DNA of 64,000 nt from Flavobacteriaceae bacterium (GCA_002862755.1 PKDY01000039.1:8789-72788); one strand, 5' to 3'. Shown: positions 4,433-61,446, numbered from the stretch's first letter. The notes: a model not told the origin generated them from the letters alone. Made by a program: numbers and translations.

Positions 4433-4493
4433 TAAAAGTACTTGTAAAATAGCCGGACAGTGTTATAGTTTTTTCTTAAAATGTTATATAATT
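4433..4493 (-). promoter_or_regulatory. Tandem-box promoter (regulon site 1) for the DUF748 operon
   Basis: -7-like 4433-4440 (sense TACTTTTA); boxes TTATAGTTTT 4463-4472 and TTATATAATT 4484-4493 (+ strand text); 21-bp period, 22-bp gap. Confidence 0.65.
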
Positions 4494-4502
4494 TAAAAAG
4501 AA

Positions 4503-5528
4503 TTACAGGTCGCTTTTCTTTTTTAGACTTATTTTATCAACCAAGCGCGCTACTGCTTTAGGAGGATCAAATCGATAACCTACATAAAATAGCAAATAGG
4601 TTTTTCCTTGACTTACTGTTTTTGATTGCTCTTCTTTGTATGCATTAGCAGAAAAATTCAGTTGGCTACCAAAAATAAAATGATCCGAACTATATCCTAA
4701 TTGTAAGCCGCCATCTAAATATTGAGTGTTATAAGTTGCTTTAGATATTGAGATTTCGTTTGGAGATGAATTGGTGGTTTCAGAAAAGCGAATGCCATAG
4801 GCTGGAGCCAAATAAGCAGAAATAAACCCTTTTTTTTGAATCACCAAAGTATAGTAATAGCCCAAAGCCAATCGAAGATTAAAAAAATCTTCCGCTATTT
4901 TGATGGTTTCAAGTGGTAAGGAAGTTCTGTTATAATCATAGTATAAAGTGGGTACAAAACTTCCAGCACTTTTTTGTTGCCATTCCGATTGAAAGAGAAC
5001 ATTTCGAAAAGAAAATTTTGGATTGAAAACATAACTCGTATTAGCACCAATAGTCAAATATTTTAAATCCGGAAATTGGATGTAAGGATCTTTATTTTCG
5101 GTCCAATTTTCAACATAATCTTGTGAATTTTCAACATAAAAACCTCTAACTTTGGAAAACTCAAAACCTTGTACCCATTTGCCTAAGAAAAATCGAAACT
5201 TATAATTGGTATACGAAGATTTACCTTTTAAATATTCATCATTGTTATCTGAAAAGAATTTAGGTGCAAAACCAACACTACCTCCAATAAATTTATAATC
5301 TAAAGAAATAAAAAGTTTAAAACTATTGTTGGATTGTAAGGTGAGTTGGCTATTATCGTCTGAATTGTTTAAGGAAAAAAAATCTTCTTGAGTATCGATA
5401 TTAATGCGTATCGAAACTTTATTTGGAAACGATTTGATATAAGTAGAATCAATTGCTTTTTTTTCTTGCGCAGTTACACGCCAAGAAGTACTACAAATGA
5501 AAAGCAATATGATTCCTTTATACCACAA
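4503..5528 (-). CDS. DUF4421-family outer-membrane beta-barrel protein
   Basis: Signal peptide; FSFRN...QSEWQQKSAGSFVP motif; aromatic beta-strands ending YVGYRF. Confidence 0.7.
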   Translation of the reverse strand: MWYKGIILLFICSTSWRVTAQEKKAIDSTYIKSFPNKVSIRINIDTQEDFFSLNNSDDNSQLTLQSNNSFKLFISLDYKFIGGSVGFAPKFFSDNNDEYLKGKSSYTNYKFRFFLGKWVQGFEFSKVRGFYVENSQDYVENWTENKDPYIQFPDLKYLTIGANTSYVFNPKFSFRNVLFQSEWQQKSAGSFVPTLYYDYNRTSLPLETIKIAEDFFNLRLALGYYYTLVIQKKGFISAYLAPAYGIRFSETTNSSPNEISISKATYNTQYLDGGLQLGYSSDHFIFGSQLNFSANAYKEEQSKTVSQGKTYLLFYVGYRFDPPKAVARLVDKISLKKKSDL

Positions 5529-5634
5529 AATCCTGTAAATTCTAAGTTATTCAAAGATATAAAATATTGAATTATCTAATTACAGGATATTTTAAAATAG
5601 AAAATTGCTTTAATTGACTTAAAAAGTAATGTTT

Positions 5635-6744
5635 TTATTTATTTCTTTTTCCCCACCAAATAAGAATACCTGTTATGGGCAAACTGGCAATGAGTAAGCT
5701 AATTAAGAAAGCAAAAATTTTTCCAGGTAAACCCAAAATTGCACCTGTATGAATATCATAATTCATTCGCATAATTTTGTCTGAAGCAGTTGCGTGATCA
5801 AGCTTTCCGTAAATGTGTTCCACTTCTTTTTCTTCTAAAGTGTAATAATCAAAATAGCGATAATCGGTTTGCCAATAGGTGCCTTTTCCTAAATTCGCAT
5901 TGGCCGCAATTATTCCATCTGCACTTTCAGGTGGATGTACTTCAATAGCTGATGCATTGGGATATTCCTCTTGCATTTTAAACCATACTTTGTCTAAAGG
6001 GTTTTCTACGATTAAAGGAGAATTGGACTTAGTAAAAACAGGTTCTTCATACACTAATGATTTTTCACCACCAATTACCGTATAATAGGAATAGGCAAAC
6101 CAAGGGAAGCCCCAAACTAAACCCGTAACAGCAAAGATGAGTGCAATGGATAAAACATAAAAACCAGTAATATTGTGTACATCATAATTTTTACGTTTCC
6201 ATTTCGTCGTATTTTTCCATTGAAACCAAAAACGTTGTTTGGCTGCTTTTTTATTTTTGGGAAACCAAAGAATGAAACCTGATATAATGAGTAGTACAAA
6301 AATTAATGTGGCAGAAGCAATAACAGTTTGCCCTATTTTTTCAGGTAGCCAAAGATAAAAATGACCGTCTAATATGAATCTGAAAAAACCCGAAAGTTCG
6401 TTTACGGTTTGAAGTACTTCTCCTGTGTATGGGTTAATGTAACAAATATCATAATATAAAGGTTCTGCATTATAAAAGATAACTTCTGCGGCTTGTTCTT
6501 TTCCTTTATACTGAATCGCATGAATGTGTTTGTGAGGTAGTTGTTGTTGACCAATACTTTTTAATTGGCTAGGTAGTAAAAAATCTTGTTCTTGTTTTTC
6601 AACCTTTTTATAAGTTTCTGTTAGATTTAATATTTCTTCTTGAAAAGCATAGAGACAACCTGTTATTGCAACAATAAAAACAATGATACCGGAAGCCAAA
6701 CCTAACCAAAGATGTATTTTTCGAATACTTTTTTTAAAATTCAT
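5635..6744 (-). CDS. PepSY-associated TM helix protein (iron-uptake associated)
   Basis: RKIHLWLGL, DGHFYLWLP, YDVHNITGFY, YDIHTGAILG motifs; lies downstream of a TonB receptor. Confidence 0.9.
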   Translation of the reverse strand: MNFKKSIRKIHLWLGLASGIIVFIVAITGCLYAFQEEILNLTETYKKVEKQEQDFLLPSQLKSIGQQQLPHKHIHAIQYKGKEQAAEVIFYNAEPLYYDICYINPYTGEVLQTVNELSGFFRFILDGHFYLWLPEKIGQTVIASATLIFVLLIISGFILWFPKNKKAAKQRFWFQWKNTTKWKRKNYDVHNITGFYVLSIALIFAVTGLVWGFPWFAYSYYTVIGGEKSLVYEEPVFTKSNSPLIVENPLDKVWFKMQEEYPNASAIEVHPPESADGIIAANANLGKGTYWQTDYRYFDYYTLEEKEVEHIYGKLDHATASDKIMRMNYDIHTGAILGLPGKIFAFLISLLIASLPITGILIWWGKRNK

Positions 6745-6761
6745 GATTCTTTTATTAAAAA

Positions 6762-6793
6762 CTAAGACGTTTCAATGGGTAGAAACGTCTTAG
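6762..6793 (-). terminator. Hairpin/terminator between TonB receptor and PepSY gene
   Basis: 12-bp stem CTAAGACGTTTC/GAAACGTCTTAG, 8-nt loop, followed by a U-run on the minus strand. Confidence 0.55.
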
Positions 6794-6803
6794 AAATGAA
6801 GTA

Positions 6804-8972
6804 TTAAAATTTATAGGTTAAACCAGCCACAACATTTCGTAACTGTTGTGGTGTAACTGTTGACCAACCTGCATAATATTTTTCATTCAATAGATTATTG
6901 ATTTTTAATGCAAAGTTGAAATTAGATGTGTTATAGGATAAAGCCGTATTTAAAACAGTATAAGAAGGAATTTCAAAAGTACCAATATTAGCTCTATTTA
7001 AAGTTTTATAAACGCTTGCATAATTCCCTCCTAAACCTAATCCAAAACCTTTTAGCGAACCTTCTGTAAAGGTATAATTAGCCCATAAATTAAGTAAGGT
7101 TTCTGGACCTGCTTGTTCTGGACGTAAACCTAAGTAACCTCCTCCAGGTGTTTCTTTAGTCACTTCACTTTTGTTATTACTAATACCTGTAATAATGTTT
7201 AATCCCTTTGTTGGGTTTACAATTAAGCTCAGTTCAATACCTTTACTTTCTACTGCTCCACCTTGTGTAAAACTATTTGGATTACTAGGATCAGCCATTA
7301 AAATATTTTGTACAGAAATATCATAATAACTTACAGCTGCTGTTAAAATGTCTTTGAATAAATTGGTTTTCACACCAAATTCTAACTGATTAGCATGTTC
7401 TGGGTCATAAGAAGCTATTCTTTGGTTGCTACCGTCCACATTAGCAATTGTTTGTGGTGTAATGTTTTTAAATCCATTCATATAATTTCCAAAAACAGAA
7501 ACCTTATTTTCTATGATTTGATACACTAGACCGAATTTAGGTGATAAATAAGTTTGATTATCAATTTCTTCTGGATCATATTCTGAAGGTTTTCCACTAA
7601 AACTGTCCAAACGTAAACTCGTCATTACAGCTAATTTATCCGTAATATTTAGTACATCTGAAAAATAAGCGCTAAAAATTTCTTGCGTAGCTTCTGAGTT
7701 GGGACTAAAAGAACCTACCAAAGCATTGTCCACACCTGCTTGTGTTAAAACAGTTGGATTGCTACCATTTAAATCGGTGCCATTCACTAAAGAAACGGTT
7801 CCATAGCTTACCCAGCCTGGACCACCATTTGTTAGTCTTGAATTAAAATAATCTAAGCCAATAGTTAATCTGTTACGTAAAGAACCAATTTTGAAGTCAC
7901 CTATAAAGTTTTGTTGAATATCCGTTGTATAATTGGTACCAATAGCTTTAGAAATAAAACGTGTAAATTCATCACCATTAGCCGAATCCCATAAATATTG
8001 GTAATACCCATTCGTTTTAGTGGTACTTTTTGATAATACCGTTTGAGAAGTCCATTTATCAGATAATGTATAGAAGGCTTGAGCTTGTAAGTTGAAGGAA
8101 TTGGTGTTTATGGTTAAATCATTTGCGGTGAATGATTTTGTATAATTTTTTTCAAATAGATCCATAGAATCAAAAGACAATGGGGAATATCTACTCAAGA
8201 AAATCATAGCCGCTTTTGCGGAGGTATTTTTATAGATTTCGGTATTGATGTAGAACGTTAATTTGTCATTTACTTGATATTTCAAGGAAGGTGCTACAAA
8301 CAAAGAATTGGTAAAACCAGCATCTTGAAAGGATTCTCCATTTTCATAAGCTGCATTGACCCTTACTGCAGCTTTGTCATTTAAAGGAAGATTAAGATCG
8401 GTTGTGATTCTGTTCAATCCATAAGTTCCAGAATTATAACTGATTTCACCTCCAAATTTATAATACGGTTTTTTGGTAACAATATTAATTAAACCACCAT
8501 AGGAGATAACACTACTACCAAATAATGTTCCTGAAGGGCCTTTAATTACCTCAATATTATCAATATTAATTGGGTCAATTGTAGTATTACTTAAAGCAGG
8601 TAATCCGTTTATCATAGAAGGTTGAACGGAAAAACCACGCATCGAATAAAATTCTGCACCATCGCCATTTCTGCCGGTAGATTCCCAAAGTCTAGTTACG
8701 CCTGTAGCATTTTTTAAAGCGTCATTAAGGTTTGTGACTACTTGTTCTTTCAATAATTCATTAGTAACTAAATTGTAGACTTGCGGATTTTCTATGTTTT
8801 TAAGCGGCATTTTTGCAACTGTGTTACTTTTTTCTCTGCCGTACTTATAATTGCTGGTAACGGTAACTTCTTTTAGTTTCTTAACGGTATCTTTTTGAGT
8901 TTCATTAGTCTCTTGACTAAAGAGTGAGAAGGATGAAAAAATTAGAATAGCGGGTAAAATTTGTTTATACAT
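6804..8972 (-). CDS. TonB-dependent siderophore receptor
   Basis: Signal peptide, LKEVTVT TonB box, plug motif IEVIKGPSGTLFG, NNLLNEKY near the C-terminus, terminal Phe. Confidence 0.93.
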   Translation of the reverse strand: MYKQILPAILIFSSFSLFSQETNETQKDTVKKLKEVTVTSNYKYGREKSNTVAKMPLKNIENPQVYNLVTNELLKEQVVTNLNDALKNATGVTRLWESTGRNGDGAEFYSMRGFSVQPSMINGLPALSNTTIDPINIDNIEVIKGPSGTLFGSSVISYGGLINIVTKKPYYKFGGEISYNSGTYGLNRITTDLNLPLNDKAAVRVNAAYENGESFQDAGFTNSLFVAPSLKYQVNDKLTFYINTEIYKNTSAKAAMIFLSRYSPLSFDSMDLFEKNYTKSFTANDLTINTNSFNLQAQAFYTLSDKWTSQTVLSKSTTKTNGYYQYLWDSANGDEFTRFISKAIGTNYTTDIQQNFIGDFKIGSLRNRLTIGLDYFNSRLTNGGPGWVSYGTVSLVNGTDLNGSNPTVLTQAGVDNALVGSFSPNSEATQEIFSAYFSDVLNITDKLAVMTSLRLDSFSGKPSEYDPEEIDNQTYLSPKFGLVYQIIENKVSVFGNYMNGFKNITPQTIANVDGSNQRIASYDPEHANQLEFGVKTNLFKDILTAAVSYYDISVQNILMADPSNPNSFTQGGAVESKGIELSLIVNPTKGLNIITGISNNKSEVTKETPGGGYLGLRPEQAGPETLLNLWANYTFTEGSLKGFGLGLGGNYASVYKTLNRANIGTFEIPSYTVLNTALSYNTSNFNFALKINNLLNEKYYAGWSTVTPQQLRNVVAGLTYKF

Positions 8973-8973
8973 T

Positions 8974-9058
8974 TTATTTAGATTAAATTAAAATAATAAT
9001 GCAAAAATAAACTTGTTTATTGAACTACACAAAATTTATTTAGACTTATTTAATATAA
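8974..9058 (-). promoter_or_regulatory. Promoter with two Fur-box-like palindromes
   Basis: TTATTTAGA-N5-TTAAAATAA 8974-8996 and TTATTTAGA-N5-TTAATATAA 9036-9058 flank -7 TATTTTTG (9002-9009 rc) and -33 TTTG (9030-9033 rc). Confidence 0.7.
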
Positions 9059-9128
9059 ATTTATAACAAAATAATGCTTTAATGTTGTGAATTTTTAGAA
9101 AGCAATATTTAGTTATATACACAGAAAA

Positions 9129-9162
9129 AAAATCCTCAATAGAATTTTGTATTGAGGATTTT
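9129..9162 (-). terminator. Intrinsic terminator after second PepSY gene
   Basis: 13-bp stem AAAATCCTCAATA/TATTGAGGATTTT with a flanking A-run. Confidence 0.7.
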
Positions 9163-9176
9163 GAATTGAATTTTTT

Positions 9177-9725
9177 TTATGAAAAAATCAAAAATAGGAT
9201 AGGGAAGAGTAGACCAGCTAGTGTTAATTTCCAACCCCTTCTTTTAAAAGTATGTTTTCCATGTTTAATCATCATCGCACCAGTTACAGCAATTAGGATT
9301 AGAGAAATACCAAAAATGTCAGAAAAATAAATCCACCAGTTCGAAGTGTTTTTATGTAAAAACATGGTTTGGCTAATGATAGGTGTTTTAATAAAAGAAA
9401 CAATTTCACCATCGCCTGATTTTAAATCAATTTCAACTTCTGTATTTTCAAATTGCATTCTAAATTTACCTTTTCTTACATTATGTCTCCTGATTTTATC
9501 TTCAATTTTTAATTCTTTTGCTAGATTTTCAGCATATACATCATTAATATCATTTTCATTTTCTGGAAGCATAACATGAATTTCTTTGGCTTCTAACGTA
9601 TATTTTTCAGGATGCCAATTTTCTCTATGATTCATCATAATTCCAGAAAAAGCAAAGGAAATAATTAAACCGAGATATATATAGCCTAAATCTCTATGGA
9701 GGTTTCTAACAGTAGTTGATTTCAT
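9177..9725 (-). CDS. Short PepSY-associated TM helix protein
   Basis: RNLHRDLGY...FSGIMMNH, FLHK...WWIYFSDIFG; three TM segments. Confidence 0.85.
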   Translation of the reverse strand: MKSTTVRNLHRDLGYIYLGLIISFAFSGIMMNHRENWHPEKYTLEAKEIHVMLPENENDINDVYAENLAKELKIEDKIRRHNVRKGKFRMQFENTEVEIDLKSGDGEIVSFIKTPIISQTMFLHKNTSNWWIYFSDIFGISLILIAVTGAMMIKHGKHTFKRRGWKLTLAGLLFPILFLIFS

Positions 9726-9737
9726 TTCTAATTAATA

Positions 9738-11879
9738 TTAAAGATTGTATTGTAAAGCAATTGAAAAATTTCTAGGAGCTATTGGGTTTAAGCTGTTATC
9801 ATCATGAGCATTGTAGCTTAATTCATTAAAAACATTGCTTAGTTTGGCTCTTAGCGTTGCTTTTTTAAATTGATAACCAACAGTAGCATCTAATTGAAAA
9901 AAATCTTGCAAATATATTAATTGTCGGGTATCATTTGCAACTCTTACCTGTGTAGATCTTCCTGCATATCTTTCACCAAAATAAGTGTTTATTAAACCTA
10001 GGTTTAAACCTTTCAGACGTCCTGCTTCAAAGCTATAGTTTGCACTAAGATTAGCCGTGTTTTTTGGATTATAACGCAATAAACTGCCTTCTATATAGGT
10101 ATTACTTTTTACGTATTTTGTTTCATTAAAGCTATATCCAGCCACTATTTGTAAACCATTAAAAGGTTTGGTAATAATGTCAATTTCTACACCTTCACTT
10201 CTAATGGAACCTGCCAATTCTTTAAAATTTGGATCCACTAATGAAGTTTGTGCTAAGTTGTTATTGTTAATTTGATAAAAAGTAACATTGGCTTGGATAA
10301 TTTCTTTAAATAATTTGTTTTTAAAACCTACTTCATATTGATCAATGATAGAAGGTTTTAACGGTTCGTTATTAATATCGGCACCTGTATTTACGTCAAA
10401 TGAATTGGAATACGTTGCAAAGACGGTATGATTCTTCGTAGGTTGGTAAATTAAACCCACTCTCGGAGAAAAAGCATCATCATAGTTATTTGTCGCTGTT
10501 GAGGTATTATTGTTATACGTTACTACATTCGTTTCTGTATCTTGATAACTGTATCGTACACCTGCTAACACTTTCCATCTTTCAGTAAGACTTACTAAAT
10601 CTTGTACATAAATTCCAAAACGACTGATAGGAGTAGTGGTTAATCTATTTTTTGTAATATCTGGAATTGCTGTTTCCGTATCCGGATTATAGTCTTCAAA
10701 AATATTTATCGTATCATATGAGGCATTGTTGTATCTAGTGGCATAATTTTTAAAATTTTCAACATCAGCTCCAAATAAAACATTATGTTTCGTTTTGCCA
10801 ATTGCAATTAATCCATTTAAATTGGCTTGTTGAGTGAAATAATTATCTTTAGAATCTGCTTTTTGTATGCTTCTATTCCAATCCCCATTTTCAGAAATTA
10901 AACCACCTGTATTCGGACGCGCATTTGCTAAAAGTTTGGTTTGATAGTAGCGAATTCCGTTTATAAAATTCACACTCCATTTCTCATTGATTTTATGGGT
11001 TAAAGTAAGTGTACTTGATAGTTGTTCCGCATCATATGTTCCCCAACTAACACCTAAAAAGCGGTTTCTAGGTAGTGCTACAATTTTATAATTAATAACA
11101 CCTGCTCCAAAATCTGGAGTTCTAGAATCATTGGTGTAGTCCGCTTCTACTAATAATTCAGTTTTTTCAGATAGTTGGAAAAAAAAAGAAGGGTTGATGT
11201 AATATTTTTCAGAGGTTACATAATTTCTATAACTTTCAGCGTTTTCATAAGTTCCGTTAATTCGAAAAGCTACATTTTTTTTGGCTCCAAGGCCGTCATA
11301 AACATCAAATGTGGGTTTGTAAGTACTAAAACTACCTTGAGCAAAACCAATTGCACCACCAAAGTTTTTCTTCGGTTTTTTGGTAACCAAATTCAGAACA
11401 CCACCTGGTGCAACGTTTCCATATAACATAGCAGCACTACCTTTTAAAAATTCAATTTTTTCAAGACCTGATGTTTCAATCATCATACCATTATAATATC
11501 GAATTCCATTTTTAAACGTATTATCACTACGTAAAGAAAAACCTCTGGAAGCAATTTCCTCTTGATAACCACCACTAGTTCCCATGATATAAACACCATT
11601 AGCATTTTTTAAAATATCGCTAAGAGTTTTGGCTTGTTGCTTTTGTAATACATCAGAAGATATACTACTTGTAGCTTGAGGCAAATCCATTTCTTTTATG
11701 TTTGATTTACTTACGCTAGGCGTATTTTGGTGCGAACCAGCAACAATTACTTCTTCTAAAATGTATTTTTTTGGTTTTACTGTATCCTTTTCAGTTTCTT
11801 GATCTAAAAACGAATTGTCTTGAGCAGAAGCAAGGGTAGTTACCAATAATATTGTGGCAAAGTAGAATCTATTTTTCAT
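9738..11879 (-). CDS. TonB-dependent siderophore receptor
   Basis: LEEVIVAG, IASRGF, IEFLKGSAAMLYG, SNVFNELSY, terminal aromatic strand. Confidence 0.93.
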   Translation of the reverse strand: MKNRFYFATILLVTTLASAQDNSFLDQETEKDTVKPKKYILEEVIVAGSHQNTPSVSKSNIKEMDLPQATSSISSDVLQKQQAKTLSDILKNANGVYIMGTSGGYQEEIASRGFSLRSDNTFKNGIRYYNGMMIETSGLEKIEFLKGSAAMLYGNVAPGGVLNLVTKKPKKNFGGAIGFAQGSFSTYKPTFDVYDGLGAKKNVAFRINGTYENAESYRNYVTSEKYYINPSFFFQLSEKTELLVEADYTNDSRTPDFGAGVINYKIVALPRNRFLGVSWGTYDAEQLSSTLTLTHKINEKWSVNFINGIRYYQTKLLANARPNTGGLISENGDWNRSIQKADSKDNYFTQQANLNGLIAIGKTKHNVLFGADVENFKNYATRYNNASYDTINIFEDYNPDTETAIPDITKNRLTTTPISRFGIYVQDLVSLTERWKVLAGVRYSYQDTETNVVTYNNNTSTATNNYDDAFSPRVGLIYQPTKNHTVFATYSNSFDVNTGADINNEPLKPSIIDQYEVGFKNKLFKEIIQANVTFYQINNNNLAQTSLVDPNFKELAGSIRSEGVEIDIITKPFNGLQIVAGYSFNETKYVKSNTYIEGSLLRYNPKNTANLSANYSFEAGRLKGLNLGLINTYFGERYAGRSTQVRVANDTRQLIYLQDFFQLDATVGYQFKKATLRAKLSNVFNELSYNAHDDNSLNPIAPRNFSIALQYNL

Positions 11880-14636: not shown

Positions 14637-15302
14637 TTATTTTTTAGCTTCTTCATTTTCTTCAGATTTAGCACCAATTCTGTTTACAGTATACATTGGA
14701 GCAAATTTGATTTTTAAAGCTGCAATTTTTCTATTATCTTCAGACGATAAACCTTCTTTTTCAACTGTATTTTTTCTTGTGTCTAACGCTTCATAAAGTA
14801 ATTTGATTTCGTCCCAATCTTCTCTTGAATAAGAATCTTTATTATTTTCAACTGTAGTTACAAAGTTGTCATAAACACTTAAAATATTATCTTTATTAAC
14901 CCATGCAAAAGTCATATCTGCAGAACCGTCATACGTTGGTCCTAAAAGCGTTTTACGCATCGTCATTTTTGCATTTTCTGCGTCTGCTTTTTCTTTTTCA
15001 GTAACTACTTTTACTCTGTATTCTTCATATCTAACAGTAGCATTATCAATAGATTCTTTTAATTTTTGGTCTTCTTCAACACCAGTTAAAGAATTTTCAG
15101 CATTCATTTTTAAACGATCGTAATCTTTTTGAATTTCATCCCAATCGTTGGCTGCTTCATTCATTTCAACGTTGCTTACTGAGTCTACATAATTTGCATA
15201 CATCGCAACATCTTTTTCAGCTTGTAATTTTTTTTCATCTGTACATGCAGTAAACGATACTGCAACAGCTAATAGTCCTAATGTGATTTTTAAGTTTTTC
15301 AT
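14637..15302 (-). CDS. Helical lipoprotein (DUF6565-like)
   Basis: Lipobox FTAC; ILSVYDNFV.TV..NK..YSREDWDEIKLLYEALD.RKNTVEKEGL motif. Confidence 0.75.
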   Translation of the reverse strand: MKNLKITLGLLAVAVSFTACTDEKKLQAEKDVAMYANYVDSVSNVEMNEAANDWDEIQKDYDRLKMNAENSLTGVEEDQKLKESIDNATVRYEEYRVKVVTEKEKADAENAKMTMRKTLLGPTYDGSADMTFAWVNKDNILSVYDNFVTTVENNKDSYSREDWDEIKLLYEALDTRKNTVEKEGLSSEDNRKIAALKIKFAPMYTVNRIGAKSEENEEAKK

Positions 15303-15334: not shown

Positions 15335-15395
15335 TAAAATTAGTCCAGTTTATTAGATTACTTTTTATATAATTTTTGTAATCCTTTACATAATT
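15335..15395 (-). promoter_or_regulatory. Tandem-box promoter (regulon site 2)
   Basis: -7-like 15335-15342 (sense TAATTTTA); TTATATAATT 15365-15374; TTACATAATT 15386-15395. Confidence 0.75.
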
Positions 15396-15469: not shown

Positions 15470-15853
15470 TTAATTTTGTTGAATATGACTGGGTTCTAAT
15501 CTGTCTTCTTTTTCTTTTGAAGTTATTTGTTCTGCCTTGTTTGTAATAAAGTTGGAAACCAAATATTGTACAATTGTAGCAGATATTTTTTTTAAGGTTC
15601 CTGCAGATTTTCCAATCATCATTTTTCGGGTTAAATAGCCACCTGCAATTCCTAAAGTTGTTTCCAATAAAGAACTTTTTATTTCTTTCGATTTTTTAAA
15701 ATCAGCAATTGTTTCTTTTACAATATTTACTGGTTTTAAACTATCTACAGTATCATTAAATTGATTACGTAAAACTTCAAAATCATGATTTCGTTTAATT
15801 TCTAGTAATCTAATTTTTTCATCTAGAAGTTGATTTTCGTCTATCCTTTTCAT
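15470..15853 (-). CDS. Hypothetical protein, partner of the holin-like/YtxH genes
   Basis: 127-aa ORF; coiled-coil then GIAGGYL hydrophobic segment; co-oriented, with a 2-bp gap to the upstream gene. Confidence 0.7.
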   Translation of the reverse strand: MKRIDENQLLDEKIRLLEIKRNHDFEVLRNQFNDTVDSLKPVNIVKETIADFKKSKEIKSSLLETTLGIAGGYLTRKMMIGKSAGTLKKISATIVQYLVSNFITNKAEQITSKEKEDRLEPSHIQQN

Positions 15854-15855
15854 AA

Positions 15856-16209
15856 TTATCTGATTTTAGTTTCTAAAAGTTTTCTAATAACCATATTTGT
15901 TATTGGCACTTTAATTAGTTGTTTTCTAAAAACAAATAATAGAATGGCAAGAACTAAATAAAATCCAGATACAATAAGAAAACCTAAGTACATTTCTCCA
16001 AGAAGTTTTCCAATGTATAAACTAATTCCAATATTGATAAACAAGGAGAACATAGCTACAATTAAACCAAATGCTAATCTAAAAGTTAAAGAGGCAGTTA
16101 TGTCTGCTGTTTTATCAATAGCATTCAATTTAAATAATTCAATGCTAGACTTTGTATAATCTTGTGCCTTTTCTAAAAGCATTTCGAAATTTGTAGCTAT
16201 CTTTTCCAT
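15856..16209 (-). CDS. Phage-holin-family/YqjE-like membrane protein
   Basis: DYTKSSIELFKL helix then two TMs (SLYIGKLLGEMYLGFLIVSGFY). Confidence 0.75.
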   Translation of the reverse strand: MEKIATNFEMLLEKAQDYTKSSIELFKLNAIDKTADITASLTFRLAFGLIVAMFSLFINIGISLYIGKLLGEMYLGFLIVSGFYLVLAILLFVFRKQLIKVPITNMVIRKLLETKIR

Positions 16210-16219
16210 CTTGTTTTAC

Positions 16220-16504
16220 TTAAATTTTTGATAATTCTTCTTTAATTTTTGTTTTACCTTCTTGAAGTTTTTCGTCTATATTTTCAGAAAGGAAATTATA
16301 TTTTTCTTGAAGTTCACCATATTTTTTTTCAAGTGTACTTACGGTGTTATCAAAACCTTCTTTTAAGTTATCTTTTAACTCATTGGCTTTTTTACCAATT
16401 TTTTTTCTTGTGTTTGAACCTTTATCTGGTGCTAATAATACTCCGATAACTGCTCCAGCTGCTAATCCAGCTACTACTCCTAATATTGCATTATTTGATT
16501 TCAT
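16220..16504 (-). CDS. YtxH-domain (general-stress-type) protein
   Basis: GLAAGAVIGVLLAPDKGSNTRKKI signature. Confidence 0.9.
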   Translation of the reverse strand: MKSNNAILGVVAGLAAGAVIGVLLAPDKGSNTRKKIGKKANELKDNLKEGFDNTVSTLEKKYGELQEKYNFLSENIDEKLQEGKTKIKEELSKI

Positions 16505-16538
16505 AATTTCTTTTTTTTAGATTTTTAATATTGTTTTT

Positions 16539-16691: not shown

Positions 16692-16713
16692 CTTGATTAA
16701 ATTTTAATTGTTA

Positions 16714-43293: not shown

Positions 43294-43320
43294 TTTTTAA
43301 TGTATATATGAAGTAAAGAA

Positions 43321-48428: not shown

Positions 48429-48438
48429 AAATTACAAA

Positions 48439-50040: not shown

Positions 50041-50043
50041 GTT

Positions 50044-52506
50044 ATGAATAGAGCAGCCTTATATCAAATTGCTGAAAAATGGTTTGAATCACAAAACTGG
50101 AAACCGTTTGCTTTTCAAAAACAAACATGGAAAGCGTTCTTACAAGGTAAAAACGGTCTTTTGAATGCCCCCACAGGTAGCGGAAAAACTTATGCGCTTT
50201 GGTTTCCTATTATTTTAAATTATATCCAACAAGTAGAAAAAGGCAAAATAAAAAAGCAATCTGGATTGAAAGCCATTTGGATTACACCTTTACGAGCACT
50301 TTCCACAGAAATCAAACAAGCTGCTGAACGTGTTATTACCGATTTAGGTGTTCCAATGACAGTTGGGATTCGTACAGGTGATACTTCAACAACAGAAAGA
50401 ACCAAACAGAAAAATAAAATGCCAGATTTATTAATTACAACTCCAGAGAGTTTGCAATTGTTATTGGCATCAAAAAACTATGCTCAAACTTTTGCACAAT
50501 GTACAGCTATTGTTATAGATGAATGGCATGAATTATTAGGTAGTAAAAGAGGTGTGCAAATGGAACTGGCTTTGTCAAGATTAAAATCAATTTCTCAGAA
50601 TATGCGAATTTGGGGAATTTCGGCAACCATTGGCAACTTAGAATTGGCACAAGAAGTGTTACTTGGAAAAGAAACGGATGCTTTTAAAAATTCTGTTTTA
50701 ATTAAAGCAAATCTTCCGAAAAAAATAACCGTTAAATCTATACTTCCAAAAAAGATGGAAACCTATCCTTGGAGAGGTCATATGGGGTTGCATTTATTAG
50801 ATGAGGTGGTACAAATCATTCGTAAAAGTAAAACAACCTTACTTTTTACCAATACACGTTCGCAATGTGAAATCTGGTTTCAATCGATACTAGATCATTA
50901 TCCTGAATTTGCTGGGGAAATTGCCATGCATCATGGAAGTATTGCTAAAGAAACCCGAATTTGGGTAGAAAATGCTATTAAAAATGAAGAATTAAAGTTG
51001 GTAGTCTGTACTTCTAGTTTGGATTTAGGAGTAGACTTTGCCCCAGTTGAAACCATTATTCAAGTTGGTGGACCAAAAGGAGTCGCACGATTTTTACAAA
51101 GAGCAGGGAGAAGTGGTCACCAACCAGGAAAAGAAAGTGTTATTTATTTTTTAGCCACTCATGCTATGGAATTAATTGAAGCTTCAGCCTTAAAAAAAGC
51201 GGCTGCGGAAACTATTGTAGAAGACAGAATTCCCTATTTAAATTGCTATGATGTTTTAATTCAATATTTAAATACATTAGCAGTTGCGGACGGATTTTAT
51301 CCCAATGAAATCTTCAAAGAGATAAAACAAACATTTTGTTATCAAAATATTTCTGATGCAGAATGGCTATGGGTTTTAAATTTTATAACCAAAGGAAGTC
51401 AAAGTTTGCAAGCTTATGATGAATTCAAAAAAGTAGAAATAGAGGCAAACGGTTTGTTTAAAATTAATAATAAGCGAATCGCCATGCAACATCGTATGCA
51501 AATAGGAACGATTGTTAGTGATGCGGTCTTGAACGTTAAATTTTTAAGTGGTGGTTACATTGGTTCTATAGAAGAATGGTTTGCCTCTAAGTTGCAAAGT
51601 GGAGATACTTTTATATTTGCAGGTAGAAAACTAGAATTTCATTCTATAAAAAACATGATTGTTTTAGTGAAATTGGCTAATGGAAAAAAAGAATCGAAAT
51701 CGGTGAGCTGGATGGGTGGCAGAATGACTTTTTCTGCTCAAATGAGTGAACTACTCCGGCAAGAATTATACAAAGTGAATCAAGGGTTGTTAACTCCAGA
51801 ATTGAAAGCGTTACAACCTGTTTTTGAGAGACAGCAAAAAGAAAGTATTCTACCCAATGACAATCAGTTCCTCATTGAAACTTTTAAAACAAGAGAAGGG
51901 TATCATACGATTTTTTATCCGTTTGAAGGTCGGTTCGTTCATGAAGCTTTAGCCAGTCTCTTATCCTATCGAATCAGTTTATTGTCGCCAATATCTTTTT
52001 CTTTAGCCTATAATGATTACGGATTTGAATTGCTTTCCGATCAAATACTGGATTTAGAAGCACTATTTGATAATAATTTATTTAGTACTTCTCATTTGCA
52101 TGATGACTTGCAAAGTAGTTTGAATGCCACCGAAATGGCGAGACGAAAATTTAGAGATATTGCAGTTATTGCAGGTTTAGTATTTACAGGAAGACCTGGA
52201 CAACCTGTAAAAACCAAACACTTGCAAAGTGGTTCGCAATTGTTATTTGAAGTTTTTAGAGATTATGAACCCGATAATTTGTTGTTGCGACAAGCTTATA
52301 TTGAAACCTTCGAACATCAATTGGAAGAAGGAAGATTAATACAAGCTTTGGAGAGGATTAATAATCAGGAAATAGTAGTTAAAAGATGTGAAAAACCAAC
52401 ACCTTTCAGTTTTCCTATAATTACAGATCGATTGAGAGAAAAATTATCAAGTGAAACTTTAGCGGAACGTATCGCAAAAATGACAGCGAGTTATTTAAAA
52501 GTTTAA
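50044..52506 (+). CDS. Ligase-associated DEXH-box helicase (Lhr-core)
   Basis: APTGSGKT, TPLRAL, TTPESL, DEWH, SAT, HHGS, TSSLDLGVDF, QRAGRSGH, GTI. Confidence 0.95.
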   Translation: MNRAALYQIAEKWFESQNWKPFAFQKQTWKAFLQGKNGLLNAPTGSGKTYALWFPIILNYIQQVEKGKIKKQSGLKAIWITPLRALSTEIKQAAERVITDLGVPMTVGIRTGDTSTTERTKQKNKMPDLLITTPESLQLLLASKNYAQTFAQCTAIVIDEWHELLGSKRGVQMELALSRLKSISQNMRIWGISATIGNLELAQEVLLGKETDAFKNSVLIKANLPKKITVKSILPKKMETYPWRGHMGLHLLDEVVQIIRKSKTTLLFTNTRSQCEIWFQSILDHYPEFAGEIAMHHGSIAKETRIWVENAIKNEELKLVVCTSSLDLGVDFAPVETIIQVGGPKGVARFLQRAGRSGHQPGKESVIYFLATHAMELIEASALKKAAAETIVEDRIPYLNCYDVLIQYLNTLAVADGFYPNEIFKEIKQTFCYQNISDAEWLWVLNFITKGSQSLQAYDEFKKVEIEANGLFKINNKRIAMQHRMQIGTIVSDAVLNVKFLSGGYIGSIEEWFASKLQSGDTFIFAGRKLEFHSIKNMIVLVKLANGKKESKSVSWMGGRMTFSAQMSELLRQELYKVNQGLLTPELKALQPVFERQQKESILPNDNQFLIETFKTREGYHTIFYPFEGRFVHEALASLLSYRISLLSPISFSLAYNDYGFELLSDQILDLEALFDNNLFSTSHLHDDLQSSLNATEMARRKFRDIAVIAGLVFTGRPGQPVKTKHLQSGSQLLFEVFRDYEPDNLLLRQAYIETFEHQLEEGRLIQALERINNQEIVVKRCEKPTPFSFPIITDRLREKLSSETLAERIAKMTASYLKV

Positions 52507-52521
52507 TAGGAAAATGCTTCT

Positions 52522-53157
52522 ATGAATATTACAATTAAGAAACAAGTTTTTATGTTACACCCTTTTGGTAGTTTGTATTGGAAGGATAAGAATATTTTGT
52601 TAATTTCGGATTTGCATTTGGGAAAAATATCGCATTTTAGAAAAAATGGATTGGCCATTCCGAATTCAGCTATACCCAAAAATTTTGAAAAACTAAATGA
52701 ACTATTGGATGTATACCAACCTCAAAAAATTATTTTTTTAGGGGATTTGTTTCACAGTACGTTAAATAGTGAATGGTATTATTTTGATAATTGGGTCCAA
52801 TCCGTATCACAAAAAATCATTTTAATTGAAGGAAATCATGACATTGTTGCCAAACACCATTATGAAAGTCTTCATGTTGAGGTTCTAGAGCGCTTACAAA
52901 TTGATGATTTTCTTTTAACGCATCATCCAGTTGAAACGGAGAATCTATTTAATTTCTGTGGTCACATTCATCCAAGAGTTGTTTTATCCGGACTTGGAAA
53001 ACAATATTTAAAAATTCCGTGTTATTTTAGAAAGCAAAACCAACTTATATTGCCTGCTTTTGGTGAATTTACCGGAAATTATACTCTAAAACCTACACCA
53101 AAAGATAAAGTTTATGTACTCACACCTAATGAAGTAATCGAAGTGAATTTAGTATAA
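52522..53157 (+). CDS. pdeM: Ligase-associated metallophosphoesterase/endonuclease PdeM
   Basis: SDLHLGK, LGDLFH, EGNHD, THHP, GHIHP, LPAFG.FTG. Confidence 0.93.
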   Translation: MNITIKKQVFMLHPFGSLYWKDKNILLISDLHLGKISHFRKNGLAIPNSAIPKNFEKLNELLDVYQPQKIIFLGDLFHSTLNSEWYYFDNWVQSVSQKIILIEGNHDIVAKHHYESLHVEVLERLQIDDFLLTHHPVETENLFNFCGHIHPRVVLSGLGKQYLKIPCYFRKQNQLILPAFGEFTGNYTLKPTPKDKVYVLTPNEVIEVNLV

Positions 53158-53178: not shown

Positions 53179-53445
53179 TTATGCGTTATTGGGAGTTAAT
53201 GGATTTGAAAATCTATTCCATTTTGACCAATCAAAGGAAGTATTCGTTTTTGCTAATTTTTGTAACATAGTATGGTAAGATGTACTCACTTGAATGCTTC
53301 TTTTACATTCTACTACAAAAGAAAGTAAAAACATTTCAAAATAATTCACTTGTTTGGCGTGAATTACAAGGTCATTCGTACAAGTTGCTACAAGGATGCA
53401 AAAAGTACTGACACATAATCGATTGAATAATACTAGCGTTTTCAT
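53179..53445 (-). CDS. Hypothetical 88-aa protein
   Basis: ORF with no recognisable family; supported mainly by a well-formed tandem-box promoter immediately upstream. Confidence 0.45.
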   Translation of the reverse strand: MKTLVLFNRLCVSTFCILVATCTNDLVIHAKQVNYFEMFLLSFVVECKRSIQVSTSYHTMLQKLAKTNTSFDWSKWNRFSNPLTPNNA

Positions 53446-53465: not shown

Positions 53466-53526
53466 CAAATCTATTGCGAGTAGCCTTATTCTTACTTATA
53501 TAATTTCAATAGATATTTATACAATA
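53466..53526 (-). promoter_or_regulatory. Tandem-box promoter (regulon site 11)
   Basis: -7 53466-53473 (sense TAGATTTG); TTATATAATT 53496-53505; TTATACAATA 53517-53526. Confidence 0.7.
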
Positions 53527-56792: not shown

Positions 56793-59700
56793 ATGGAACA
56801 ACAACAACCTTATATTCCTGTTAATAAAGTAAGAATTGTTACTGCAGCTTCACTTTTTGATGGACATGATGCAGCAATCAATATCATGAGAAGAATCATC
56901 CAAGCTACAGGATGTGAAGTCATTCATTTAGGTCATGATAGAAGTGTGGAAGAAGTAGTTAATACTGCAATTCAAGAAGATGCCAATGCAATTGCTATGA
57001 CTTCTTACCAAGGAGGTCATACCGAATATTTAAAATATATGTTTGATTTGCTGAACGAAAAAGGAGCAAGTCATATCAAAATTTTTGCCGGTGGAGGAGG
57101 TGTTATCCTTCCTTCTGAAATTGAAGAATTACACGAATACGGAATTGAGAAAATCTATTCTCCAGATGATGGTCGTGCCATGGGATTGCAAGGAATGATT
57201 AATGATTTAGTGAAACGTTCTGATTTCCCTATTGGAGATTCTCTAAACGGAGAAGCAGATCATTTAATCAATAAAAATCCTCGTGATATTGCACGTGTAA
57301 TTTCTGCAGCTGAAAATTTCCCTGAAATAGCGAAAGCCACATTAGATAAGATACACCAAGAAAACCAAACGTCAACCACACCCGTTTTAGGAATTACAGG
57401 AACAGGTGGTGCTGGTAAATCGTCTTTAGTAGACGAATTAGTACGTCGTTTTTTAATTGATTTCCCTGAGAAAACAATTGGTTTAATTTCAGTTGATCCA
57501 TCCAAACGTAAAACGGGTGGTGCTTTATTAGGAGATCGTATTCGTATGAATGCCATCAATAATTCAAGAGTGTACATGCGTTCGTTGGCTACACGTCAAT
57601 CTAATTTAGCTTTGTCAAAATATGTAGCGGAAGCGATTCAAGTTTTAAAAGCAGCTAAATACGATTTAATTGTATTGGAAACTTCAGGTATTGGGCAATC
57701 GGATACTGAAATTATGGACCACTCTGATGTTTCATTGTATGTAATGACACCTGAATTTGGTGCGGCTACACAATTGGAAAAAATCGATATGTTGGATTTC
57801 GCGGATTTGGTAGCACTAAATAAATTTGACAAAAGAGGTGCCTTAGATGCTATTCGTGATGTAAAAAAACAATACCAACGCAATCATAATCTTTGGGACG
57901 CCAATCCAGATGATATGCCTGTTTTTGGAACTATTGCGTCTCAATTTAACGATCCTGGAATGAATTCGCTATACAAAGCGATAATGGATAAAATTGTCGA
58001 CAAAACAGGAATTGATTTACACTCTACTTTTGAAATTACTAAAGAAATGAGTGAGAAAATCTTCGTTATTCCGCCGCATAGAACACGTTATTTATCGGAG
58101 ATTGCTGAAAACAATCGTAAATACGATGAGACTGTTTTAACGCAGGTTGAAGTGGCTCAAAAATTATATGGAATTTTCAAAACAATAGAATCGGTAAACG
58201 GAAATTTCCCTCAAATTGATAAAGCAGGAATCGTTGAATCATCATTACAAATTAACGATTCAAACAAAGATTTCGTTTCACTTTTAGTAAAAGAATTTGA
58301 CCGCGTTAAAATGAATTTAGACCCATACAATTGGGAAGTAATTCAAACTTGGGATGAAAAAGTAAACAAATACAAAAATCCTATTTACTCGTTTAAAGTA
58401 AGGGATAAAGTAATTGAAATTAAAACACATAGTGAGTCGTTATCACATACACAAATTCCTAAAATTGCCTTACCAAAATACCAAGCTTGGGGTGATATTT
58501 TAAGATGGAATTTACAAGAAAATGTACCTGGAGAATTCCCATTTGCATCTGGATTGTATCCGTTTAAACGTGAAGGGGAAGATCCAACGCGAATGTTTGC
58601 AGGTGAAGGAGGACCAGAACGTACTAACCGTCGTTTCCACTATGTGAGTTTGGGTATGCCAGCAAAACGTTTGTCAACAGCTTTTGACTCGGTAACACTT
58701 TACGGAAATGATCCCGATCATAGACCTGATATTTACGGTAAAATTGGGAATGCAGGGGTTTCAATTTGTTGTTTGGATGATGCAAAAAAATTATATTCTG
58801 GTTTCGATTTGAGTCACCCAGCAACTTCAGTTTCGATGACGATTAATGGACCAGCACCTATGTTGTTAGGCTTCTTTATGAATGCCGCTATCGATCAAAA
58901 TTGTGAGAAGTATATTAAAGAAAATGGTTTAGAAGCAGAAGTAGAAGCTAAAATTAAAGCGATTTATAAAGCTAAAGATTTAGAAAGGCCAACCTATAAC
59001 GGGGCTTTGCCTGAAGGGAATGATGGTTTAGGATTAATGCTTCTTGGTGTAACTGGAGATCAAGTTTTACCAGCTGATGTGTACCAAGATATTAAAATAA
59101 AAACCTTAGCACAAGTGCGTGGTACCGTTCAAGCAGATATTTTAAAAGAAGACCAAGCGCAAAATACGTGTATTTTCTCTACAGAATTTGCGTTGCGATT
59201 AATGGGTGATGTTCAGGAATATTTCATCCAACAAAATGTACGTAATTTCTACTCGGTTTCTATTTCAGGTTATCATATTGCAGAAGCGGGTGCCAATCCT
59301 ATTACACAATTGGCGTTTACTTTAGCCAATGGTTTCACTTACGTGGAATATTACTTGAGTAGAGGTATGGATATCAATGCTTTCGGACCGAACTTATCGT
59401 TCTTTTTCTCAAATGGTATAGATCCTGAATATGCAGTTATTGGTCGAGTAGCACGTAAAATTTGGGCGAAAGCCTTAAAATTAAAATACGGTGCCAATGA
59501 AAGAGCCCAAATGTTGAAATACCATATTCAAACATCGGGTCGTTCTTTGCATGCACAAGAAATTGATTTCAATGATATTCGTACAACGTTGCAAGCGTTA
59601 TATGCCATTTACGATAATTGTAATTCCTTGCATACCAATGCGTATGATGAGGCGATTACAACACCTACAGAAGAATCGGTGCGTAGAGCGATGGCTATTC

Positions 59701-60218
59701 AGTTGATTATCAATAAAGAATTAGGTTTAGCGAAAAACGAAAACCCAATACAAGGTTCGTTTATTATTGAAGAATTAACCGATTTAGTAGAAGAAGCGGT
59801 TTTAGCAGAATTTGATAGAATTACCGAAAGAGGTGGAGTTTTGGGTGCTATGGAAACCATGTACCAAAGAAGTAAAATTCAAGAAGAATCGTTGTATTAT
59901 GAAACCTTGAAACATACAGGAGAATTCCCAATTATTGGTGTGAATACTTTCTTAAGTTCGAAAGGTTCCCCAACGGTTATTCCTGCGGAAGTGATTCGTG
60001 CAACAGAAGAAGAAAAGCAATTCCAGATTAAGACATTGGAAAACTTGCACAAAGCACATGCCGATAAAGTAAAAGAACAAATTGCTTTATTACAAGAAGC
60101 AGCCATTACCAACCAAAATATATTTGAAGTATTAATGAATGCTACTAAGTATTGTTCGTTAGGACAAATTACTTCAGGTTTATTTGAAGTAGGAGGTCAG
60201 TACAGACGAAATATGTAA
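56793..60218 (+). CDS. icmF: Fused B12-binding/MeaB GTPase/acyl-CoA mutase (IcmF-type isobutyryl-CoA mutase)
   Basis: N-terminal FDGHD B12-binding motif; [10 protein letters not shown]-loop, VDPS, ETSG, NKFD; mutase barrel [11 protein letters not shown] (Phe, not the Tyr of MCM), [22 protein letters not shown]. Confidence 0.88.
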
Positions 60219-60419: not shown

Positions 60420-60428
60420 ATTTAATAA

Positions 60429-60690
60429 GAGCTAAAACCTATTAATTTCAGCCTAAAAGCTCTTAATAATAAGCTCAAAGCTATTAGTAATAATCAAAAA
60501 GGTTCAAATTATAACCTCAAAGCTATTATTTATAACCAAAAAGGTCCTAATTATAACCTTAAAGCTATTAATTATAACCTTAAAGCTATTAATTATAAGC
60601 AAAAAGCTATTAGTAATAACCAAAAAGGTTCTAATTATAACCTTAAAGCTTATATTTATAAAATAAAAGGTATTAATTAGTAACAAAAAG
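60429..60690. repeat. Imperfect 21-bp tandem repeat, about 12 units
   Basis: Consensus approximately ATAACCTTAAAGCTATTAATT, variant ATAACCAAAAAGGTTCTAATT; lies between two terminators. Confidence 0.8.
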
Positions 60691-60739
60691 GTATTTGCGA
60701 TAAGCTATTTGGTTTAAAATGAATATTTTCCTAAATAAA

Positions 60740-60767
60740 AAAGACCTTTCGATAGCGAAAGGTCTTT
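60740..60767 (-). terminator. pfpI terminator
   Basis: AAAGACCTTTCG-ATAG-CGAAAGGTCTTT with flanking A/T runs. Confidence 0.8.
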
Positions 60768-60798
60768 CTTTTTGTAATATAAAAAATAGAATAAAGGT

Positions 60799-61344
60799 TT
60801 ACAATACAGGTTCGTGTTTCCCTTCTTTAATTTCTTCAATCATTTTTTTGTTGAAAGCTGGTAAATCATCAGGATTTCTACTGGTTACTAATCCTTTGTC
60901 GACCACTACTTCTTTATCATGCCATTCGGCACCCGCGTTGATTAAATCTTGTTTGATAGAAGGATAAGAAGTCATTTTTCTACCTGCTACCACTTCTGCA
61001 CTGATTAGTGTTTGTGGACCATGACAAATGGCAGCTACTGGTTTTCCGGCTTCAAAAAAGGCTTTTACAAATTCCAATGCTTTTTCATTGGTACGCAATT
61101 GATCAGGATTAATCACGCCTCCAGGTAAAAGCAGCGCATTGTAATCGGAAAAATGAACTTCGTCTATGGTTTTATCCACTGGGTATAATTTTCCCCAATC
61201 TGTGGATGCCCATGCTTTAATACTTCCCGATTTCGGACTTACAATTTCTGCAATCCAACCTTCTTTTTCAAGTGCTTTTTTTGGTGATGTTAATTCTACT
61301 TCTTCAAATCCATTGGTAGCCAAAATAGCTATTTTCTTTTTCAT
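60799..61344 (-). CDS. PfpI/DJ-1 family type 1 glutamine amidotransferase-like protein
   Basis: GFEEVE, LLPGG..NPD.LR, AICHGP nucleophile, LVTSR.P.DL.AF. Confidence 0.93.
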   Translation of the reverse strand: MKKKIAILATNGFEEVELTSPKKALEKEGWIAEIVSPKSGSIKAWASTDWGKLYPVDKTIDEVHFSDYNALLLPGGVINPDQLRTNEKALEFVKAFFEAGKPVAAICHGPQTLISAEVVAGRKMTSYPSIKQDLINAGAEWHDKEVVVDKGLVTSRNPDDLPAFNKKMIEEIKEGKHEPVL

Positions 61345-61385
61345 AATTTTAATTTTTTTACTGTTTAACTATTAATTTGTTAGTG

Positions 61386-61446
61386 TAAAATTACGAAACG
61401 ATGACTCCTTGTTTGTTATAGGATTTTGTAAGATTTTTATAGAATG
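61386..61446 (-). promoter_or_regulatory. Tandem-box promoter (regulon site 12) for pfpI
   Basis: -7-like 61386-61393 (sense TAATTTTA); TTATAGGATT 61416-61425; TTATAGAATG 61437-61446. Confidence 0.7.

Follow-up and report, generated by a model that had tools for sequence, protein, structure and literature searches.

Our analysis of a 64,000-nucleotide stretch of a Flavobacteriaceae genome (GCA_002862755.1, PKDY01000039.1:8789-72788; C22:8789-72788 of the assembly, hereafter the window) revealed twelve sites in which two copies of a 10-bp box precede a promoter octamer at nearly fixed distances. It also revealed a string of three genes, encoding a short AraC-family protein, a single-domain response-regulator receiver and a sensor histidine kinase, with which such sites are associated in many other species. 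As far as sequence comparison can tell, the twelve sites are probably activator-dependent promoters of the housekeeping sigma factor, sigma-A, read by the AraC-family protein of 187 amino acids (aa) as the output of a split two-component system. The class of mechanism is a known one, that of AraC-family class II activators under two-component control. A full-text search of the literature returned no description of the motif, of the regulator family, of the split receiver/AraC arrangement, of its stress-type regulon or of a general stress circuit in Bacteroidota. That none was found for the motif is in keeping with an earlier statement that no description was known; NCBIfam likewise had no named model that matched the regulator above the cut-off.

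A rigid tandem-box architecture far above chance

The preliminary description of this DNA had listed twelve promoters sharing one tandem-box layout. A direct reading of the window bore out the coordinates and strands of all twelve to the base (Table 1). Each site has the form box(10)-N11-box(10)-N22/N21-octamer. The boxes recur with a period of exactly 21 bp in 12/12 cases, and the gap between the proximal box and the octamer is 22 nt at ten sites and 21 nt at the other two (33183 and 47320, both on the plus strand), as had been claimed. The 24 boxes of these sites yield the consensus AATTATRTAA, which matches the proposed AATTAT[A/G]TAA; T6, T8, A9 and A10 do not vary among them, and only A or G is seen at position 7. 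The octamers, described earlier as -7-like, are indeed of the Bacteroidota -7 type. Ten of the twelve fit nAnnTTTR, the exceptions being TTACTTTG at site 33085 and TACTTTAG at site 47231. Only the count of promoters needs to be qualified: there are twelve sites, but the transcription units that they serve number 11. One operon has two promoters in tandem, sites 18071 and 18185, which lie 114 bp apart with no open reading frame (ORF) between them, and two pairs (33085/33183 and 47231/47320) stand back to back in divergent orientation.

The G+C content is 31.5% in the genome and 23% in the intergenic DNA of the window, yet the tandem-box pattern is not an artefact of AT-richness. When a loose composite (TRTAA-N16-TRTAA-N21/22-nAnnTTTR) was searched, the window gave 10 matches, against a mean of 0.057 and a maximum of 1 in 300 dinucleotide-preserving shuffles; shuffled intergenic blocks alone (4.4 kb, 23% GC) gave a mean of 0.017. 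A further control used the real genome sequence (3.70 Mb scanned) and varied both spacings of TRTAA-d1-TRTAA-d2-nAnnTTTR. The combination (21,22) was found 24 times and (21,21) 6 times, whereas the other 518 cells had a mean of 1.8, a standard deviation of 1.3 and a maximum of 7. The genome-wide spacing scan and the AT-matched shuffles, which the preliminary description had put forward as checks, both place the geometry far above chance. A position weight matrix of the box, run over the whole genome, showed a single peak at spacing 21, with 20 pairs scoring at least 7 against 0-6 at the other spacings.

Among the loose matches in the genome, 24/30 are intergenic and have an ORF with an ATG start 4-67 nt past the octamer (136 nt in the case of the more distant promoter of the tandem pair), and 6/30 lie inside long ORFs, which is the background rate. 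The 24 intergenic matches and the two window sites with off-pattern octamers make a regulon of about 26 promoters, half of them in the window; 13 sites lie in the window or just past its end.

An AraC-receiver-kinase trio linked to the sites

The candidate regulator sits downstream of promoter 5, behind mlaEFD. The kinase, the receiver and the AraC-family protein are encoded by three separate genes with 12-bp gaps, and the AraC-family protein has no receiver domain of its own. In the translation of the receiver the acidic pocket, the FLDLNMP stretch and the KKP motif are legible. No protein of the trio scored above the cut-off of any named NCBIfam model. The closest match of the 187-aa protein is in Flavobacterium profundi TP390 (99% identity). 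An AlphaFold (AF2) model built from 21 orthologs, with a predicted local distance difference test (pLDDT) score of 88, begins with a small alpha/beta domain (about residues 1-62), which a linker helix joins to two helix-turn-helix (HTH) motifs. Searched with Foldseek against solved structures, it matched best the output domains of YesN (3lsg, 28% identity) and AraT (6swi), followed by AdpA and MarA, and the SoxS domain was found too. The isolated N-terminal domain had as its top match the metal-binding domain of CopA, a weak one at E = 0.18; the Pfam model of the heavy-metal-associated (HMA) domain matched one paralog only, below the cut-off (E = 0.0098).

The association between sites and trio is conserved in relatives, and the positional conservation proposed earlier as a check was found in 80 other species, where the same sites flank the trio. 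These 80 loci are the best of a genome collection; Flavobacterium, Chryseobacterium, Dokdonia, Kordia, Mariniflexile, Gelidibacter and Polaribacter, among others, are represented. Together the loci span 0.93 Mb, in which 168 composite sites were counted, 162 in the orientation of the AraC gene. A site follows the trio module in 70/74 of these loci, at a median distance of 94 bp, and one lies at most 3.5 kb upstream of the AraC gene in 57/70. The receiver gene follows the AraC gene in 80/80, so that the separate-gene arrangement is kept, and the kinase gene follows the receiver gene in most relatives. The usual layout starts with a site and, in some cases, dps, csbD and an AI-2E transporter gene, continues with araC, receiver and kinase, and ends with a second site and genes such as those for an outer-membrane protein (OMP) barrel, DUF5670, YtxH and a holin-like protein. 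In many Flavobacterium species, the equivalent of promoter 8 drives a dps-csbD-araC-receiver-kinase string. The position of promoters 3 and 4 is occupied in relatives by two, even three copies of the site (for example in loci L052, L067 and L078), and the string from DUF4142 to the holin-like gene also follows the post-kinase site in most of them. Since a site directly fronts the trio operon in most relatives, the regulator operon would be under its own promoter type.

The linkage extends beyond these loci. Twenty further genera of the family (G+C 28-47%) keep the trio in the 20-kb regions that surround their orthologs, and 15/20 of these regions have an adjoining box-N11-box-N22-nnnnTTTG site. 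A stricter motif, AATNNTRTAA-N11-AATNNTRTAA, was then related to the presence of the trio in 150 other genera. It occurs in 20/22 genera with trio orthologs versus 35/128 without (Fisher p = 1.8e-8), at 1.8 versus 0.34 matches per genome, the reversed-pattern control giving about 0.19. Other trio-bearing Flavobacterium species have 7-20 strict sites, against 0-2 control matches, and on these counts a large predicted regulon is usual across the genus. The trio is present, for instance, in F. aquidurense, F. piscis and F. denitrificans, which are closely related to F. johnsoniae. Both HTH regions, with their recognition helices, are near-invariant among trio-type orthologs across genera, which would fit the conserved box.

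The protein belongs to a family of AraC-type proteins of about 180-200 aa, found at E <= 1e-35 in 141/301 sampled Bacteroidota genomes, including other orders and classes. In distant lineages a tandem TRTAA-N16-TRTAA site adjoins the family gene in 15/20 loci, with a gap of 21-23 nt to nnnnTTTG; most of these sites begin no more than a few tens of bases past the stop codon, and two precede csbD. Such repeated and independent adjacency of gene and site across the phylum is the classic signature by which comparative genomics predicts a regulator and its operator. The suggestion that the regulator belongs to the AraC family is therefore strongly supported: a short AraC gene lies in the cluster, downstream of a site, is flanked by sites in 80 species and co-occurs with them across genera.

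Promoter geometry, mode of action and rival regulators

The sigma-A octamer of F. psychrophilum, TAnnTTTG, spans positions -12 to -5 (PMC9723704). When this numbering is applied here, the proximal box lies at -44 to -35 and the distal box at -65 to -56. In a logo drawn from 149 non-identical sites with a 22-nt gap, collected from relatives, distal and proximal box are equally conserved; a C is frequent after each box, and an A-rich run lies ahead of the proximal box. The logo has no TTG at the position of the -33 element, because the box and the bases next to it occupy that place. A sigma-A-type octamer together with an equally conserved distal box fits an activator better than a sigma factor, and no sigma gene was found among the genes of the window, all of which favours the activator of the preliminary description over an alternative sigma factor.

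AraC at araI1-I2, XylS at Pm, RhaS and MelR all act from direct repeats that are spaced by two helical turns, with the proximal repeat next to the -35 element. The present system resembles these class II activators in its two AraC-type HTH motifs and in its direct half-sites one 21-bp period apart. Its proximal half-site, which ends 21-22 nt before the octamer, would by F. psychrophilum numbering also adjoin the -35 equivalent. It differs from them in that the regulator has 187 aa and a small ferredoxin-like N-terminal domain in place of a sugar- or effector-binding dimerisation domain. It also differs in its contiguous boxes of 10-11 bp, its Bacteroidota -7/-33 promoters and its about 26 stress-type promoters, as opposed to one catabolic operon. 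The combination of kinase, receiver and AraC output recalls YesN/AraT and the hybrid two-component systems (HTCS) of Bacteroides, and the DNA-binding domain is nearest to YesN and AraT. The direct repeats predicted for HTCS (16+5, 12+9 and 14+6 bp) have a period of 20-21 bp (PMC3878776), like those described here. HTCS, however, fuse all three modules and YesN two, whereas here there are three separate proteins; and HTCS target polysaccharide utilisation loci, as opposed to the stress and envelope genes of the present regulon.

These likenesses suggest how the circuit may work. The housekeeping sigma factor would read all twelve promoters, which combine a -7 box of the nAnnTTTG type with two direct boxes (AATTnTRTAA), and transcription would depend on the activator. 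Most likely, two copies of the 187-aa protein would bind the tandem boxes and recruit RNA polymerase in a class II manner. The receiver and the CHASE3-PAS kinase would probably set the activity of the AraC-family protein: going by gene order alone, the kinase would phosphorylate the receiver, which would switch its partner, most simply through the N-terminal domain. The functions of a response regulator would thus be split between a receiver protein and a DNA-binding protein. As a site fronts the trio operon in most relatives, the circuit would exert positive feedback on itself; in the window, promoter 5 probably drives the trio behind mlaEFD.

Several points weigh against this reading. The box is contiguous and, with 10-11 bp, shorter than the well-studied sites of AraC monomers, which are bipartite and span 17-20 bp. 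The missing TTG at -33 was considered as proof of activator dependence and dropped: no more than about 20% of the generic promoter-like sites of this genome carry one, so that its absence is weak evidence. In this genome an 84-bp gap (window 22529-22611, minus strand) splits mlaD from the AraC gene, and autoregulation would have to come by read-through. The gap holds TACTTTTA 22 nt before the GTG start of the AraC gene, possibly a weak box-less promoter that gives the trio basal expression. The receiver might be a phosphate sink and not the partner of the AraC-family protein. The genome also encodes paralogs whose recognition helices hardly differ and whose boxes are similar, which makes the assignment of promoters to family members ambiguous. 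Finally, a region of F. psychrophilum that is similar in gene content, and may be a counterpart, is weakly expressed in every condition assayed; as a lead it points, if anything, to silence. In the start-site table of that species (PMC9723704 supplements), none of six box variants was rightly placed among the start sites listed.

The ambiguity between paralogs raises the question of whether we have named the right family but the wrong member, some or all sites being served by a paralogous short AraC protein, such as the one encoded at C29:5750-6286, or by several proteins combined. The genome has at least four full-length paralogs. The second HTH of the C29 paralog (186 aa) is almost identical to that of the trio protein, and right after its stop codon comes a tandem-box site, AAATGTGTAA-N11-ACTTGTGTAA-N22-CACCTTTG, followed by a CsbD-like gene. 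Similar tandem boxes follow paralog genes in this genome and in relatives. Yet in 80 species it is the trio that the sites flank, and strict AATTnTRTAA sites track trio orthologs across genera. Moreover, a matrix trained on the window found no match beside the paralogs of the same genome; with a looser core pattern their boxes appear related but differ in the 5' half (ATAT or ACTT instead of AATT). We thus regard this alternative as unlikely, although the choice between the trio protein and a paralog is a serious uncertainty as to the identity of the regulator, and some sites may be the paralog's. The preferred reading fares better still against regulators of other families. LytTR sites (those of AgrA, ComE and PlnC) consist of 9-10-bp direct repeats with an 11-12-bp spacer just upstream of -35, so box length and 21-bp period would suit a LytTR-type response regulator, and the genome encodes 12 LytTR-domain proteins. 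We considered such a regulator for this reason and dropped it for want of linkage to the sites: 0/12 of these genes are on contig C22 or beside any site, and none was seen beside the sites in 120 comparative loci, where the AraC gene is always present. That it binds the boxes is the least probable of the alternatives. Hardly more probable is that an alternative sigma factor of the extracytoplasmic function (ECF) type uses the proximal box as its -35-like element, or that the boxes are repressor operators. The boxes do occupy the -35 region, and TGTAAC resembles some ECF -35 elements, but the downstream element is a sigma-A octamer, the equally conserved distal box exactly 21 bp away would be left unexplained, and neither sigma nor anti-sigma genes were found among the genes of the window. 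As for repression, the sites lie upstream of the core promoter and not over the start site.

One more AraC-type protein of the window, the Rob-like AraC/GyrI protein (gene at 1620-2522), was rejected as the regulator. Its gene is a target of site 1 and adjoins sites in none of the comparative loci, which argues for a member of the regulon.

Three other paralogs, encoded outside the window at C24:20347-20802 (minus), C33:3365-3901 (plus) and C8:8850-9374 (plus), begin with an MxCxxC motif, as seen in heavy-metal-associated domains. Behind the C24 paralog come AATTTTGCAA-N11-AATTGTGTAA-N21-GAAATTTG and the gene of an HMA-type protein (GMTCxxC), an arrangement suggestive of a family member that responds to metal. 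A further lone receiver gene lies behind the C33 paralog.

Target genes and a possible general stress function

No equivalent of SigB, RpoS or EcfG, the alternative sigma factors that govern general stress in Firmicutes and in gamma- and alpha-proteobacteria, is known from Bacteroidota. Elsewhere, Dps, CsbD, YtxH, DUF892/YciE-F, DUF1328/YtjA, GSP26-like proteins, PfpI and MscS are families that recur in the SigB, RpoS and EcfG regulons. Pfam confirmed the targets named in the preliminary description (dps-csbD, ytxH, holin-like genes, pfpI, DNA repair and envelope lipid genes), and the hallmark protective families of the regulon comprise Dps, CsbD, YtxH, PfpI, MscS, DUF892, DUF1328, DUF2383 and Pyrid_ox_like. 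The label of general stress regulon was given because these are protective families of the kind found under SigB, RpoS and EcfG, and is thus a reading of gene content only. The systems whose protein families overlap with the present targets are SigB in Bacillus and Listeria, RpoS in gamma-proteobacteria and PhyR-NepR-EcfG in alpha-proteobacteria. They also resemble the present one in having the regulator operon under its own promoter type and, for PhyR, in taking input from histidine kinases and a receiver. They differ in that here there is no alternative sigma factor: the housekeeping -7 box is kept and an activator site is added.

The regulon might be real and nevertheless answer to a single cue, such as desiccation, freezing, damage to envelope or lipids, or a dormancy signal, perceived by the CHASE3-PAS kinase, and stay silent under ordinary osmotic, oxidative and stationary-phase stress. 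A dedicated sensor kinase suggests one input, and many targets are envelope-lipid genes (Mla, TamB, PAP2, Omp85). F. psychrophilum THCO2-90 offers a further lead. In this strain 103 genes (4.4%) are weakly expressed in all 32 conditions assayed, which include growth phases and several stresses, and about 40/103 of these silent genes cluster in some 75 kb, THC0290_1129-1210, a clustering on which the paper does not comment (PMC9723704 Table S4). This region encodes a 180-aa AraC-family protein, a hybrid kinase, a receiver, a BrkB-like 'ribonuclease BN', Dps, UspA and Mla-like ABC proteins (PMC9723704). If it is the counterpart of the island described here, the inducing cue lies outside those 32 conditions, but its uniform silence could have another cause. 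Against a single cue stands the presence of Dps, CsbD, YtxH, DUF892, DUF1328, GSP26-like and PfpI proteins, families shared by the SigB, RpoS and EcfG regulons. On balance we find a single cue rather unlikely, though clearly less so than a wrong family member, and the choice between it and general stress is a serious uncertainty as to function.

More tentatively, and with the odds somewhat against it, the trio could be the master switch of a general stress or dormancy programme of the Flavobacteriia, with related forms across the phylum. The phosphorylated receiver would then dock on the ferredoxin/HMA-like N-terminal domain, which would bind metal in the MxCxxC paralogs.

The present system provides a testable candidate for a general stress switch in Bacteroidota, whose elements are a defined site, a regulator of 187 aa together with kinase and receiver, and about 26 promoters. 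The regulator is found with its sites in 80 other Flavobacteriales species, and other orders and classes have related short AraC proteins with tandem boxes; the bearers include many environmental flavobacteria and fish or opportunistic pathogens. One switch over the ligase-Lhr operon, MlaEFD without MlaA/MlaC, TamB/Omp85/PAP2 and many DUFs, all of them poorly understood, would offer a handle on the function of these genes. The rigid and portable promoter module could also become an inducible expression tool for Bacteroidota.

Table 1. Tandem-box sites, the genes they are predicted to drive, and the candidate regulator trio. Positions are those of the window; protein domains were assigned with Pfam.
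Feature	Position	Strand	Distal box	Proximal box	Octamer	Genes, products or remarks
Promoter 1	4433-4493	-	4484-4493	4463-4472	4433-4440 TACTTTTA	DUF748 / alpha-beta hydrolase / AraC-GyrI genes
Promoter 2	15335-15395	-	15386-15395	15365-15374	15335-15342	DUF6565 gene (14637-15302)
Promoter 3	18071-18131	-	18122-18131	18101-18110	18071-18078 CAACTTTG	Operon-proximal member of tandem pair
Promoter 4	18185-18245	-	18236-18245	18215-18224	18185-18192	114 bp upstream of promoter 3
Operon of promoters 3 and 4	15470-18048	-				DUF4142, OMP beta-barrel, DUF5670, YtxH, holin-X-like, 127-aa protein
BrkB/YihY-family membrane protein	18339-19277	-				Last gene of the trio string
Sensor histidine kinase	19280-21493	-				CHASE3, two PAS, HisKA, HATPase_c; no receiver domain
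Single-domain receiver, 148 aa	21506-21952	-				Response_reg; 12 bp past the AraC gene
AraC-family protein, 187 aa	21965-22528	-				Candidate regulator; HTH_18 (4.7e-15), HTH_AraC (9.8e-11)
mlaEFD	22612-24905	-				mlaE 24096-24905, mlaF-like ATPase gene 23368-24099, mlaD 22612-23352
Promoter 5	24928-24988	-	24979-24988	24958-24967	24928-24935	mlaE-mlaF-mlaD
Promoter 6	33085-33145	-	33136-33145	33115-33124	33085-33092 TTACTTTG	PAP2 / TamB-like / Omp85 genes (25020-33057)
Promoter 7 (gap 21)	33183-33242	+	33183-33192	33204-33213	33235-33242	DUF6268 (33261-34172) and GAF protein (34175-36484) genes
Promoter 8	45302-45362	-	45353-45362	45332-45341	45302-45309	dps
String of promoter 8	41525-45268	-				Dps 44789-45268, CsbD 44544-44729, AI-2E transporter 43321-44451, MscS 42448-43293, SdiA-regulated-like 41525-42406
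Promoter 9	47231-47291	-	47282-47291	47261-47270	47231-47238 TACTTTAG	Gene of 598-aa FAD/NAD(P)-binding protein (45382-47178)
Promoter 10 (gap 21)	47320-47379	+	47320-47329	47341-47350	47372-47379	Repair operon
Repair operon of promoter 10	47400-53157	+				MBL-fold protein, ATP-dependent DNA ligase, Lhr helicase, metallophosphoesterase
Promoter 11	53466-53526	-	53517-53526	53496-53505	53466-53473	Gene of 88-aa protein (53179-53445), no Pfam match
Promoter 12	61386-61446	-	61437-61446	61416-61425	61386-61393	DJ-1/PfpI gene (60799-61344)
13th site, 119 bp beyond the right end of the window	64119-64149 (C22:72907-72937)	-	AATAGTATAA	AATACTGTAA	TACTTTTG	Spacing N11 between boxes and N22 to octamer

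Some of these units call for comment. The likely ATG behind promoter 6 (33055-33057) is 27 nt past the octamer. The five genes from dps to the SdiA-regulated-like gene, to judge from strand and spacing, would form one operon. The 13th site fronts the gene of a 71-aa membrane protein with a weak match to DUF5963, which the end of the window cuts (63832-64000). Box-bearing units outside the window encode proteins assigned by Pfam to DUF892, DUF1328, DUF2383, GSP26-like Pyrid_ox_like and CitMHS/TrkA_C transporter families; further ones encode DUF4382, small hydrophilic proteins and OMP barrels. At promoter 1 (window 4428-4440, minus strand) just 4 nt separate the octamer from the first ATG of the DUF748 ORF; the mRNA would be leaderless, unless the true start codon lies further in.

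Other genes of the island have no tandem-box site. Two pairs of TonB-dependent receptor and PepSY_TM genes (5635-11879, minus strand) stand between units of the regulon and probably form an unrelated uptake cluster. A 1141-aa protein encoded at 56793-60218 (plus strand), which fuses B12-binding, MeaB GTPase and methylmalonyl-CoA-mutase-type parts in an IcmF-like architecture, is an ordinary neighbour in the island.

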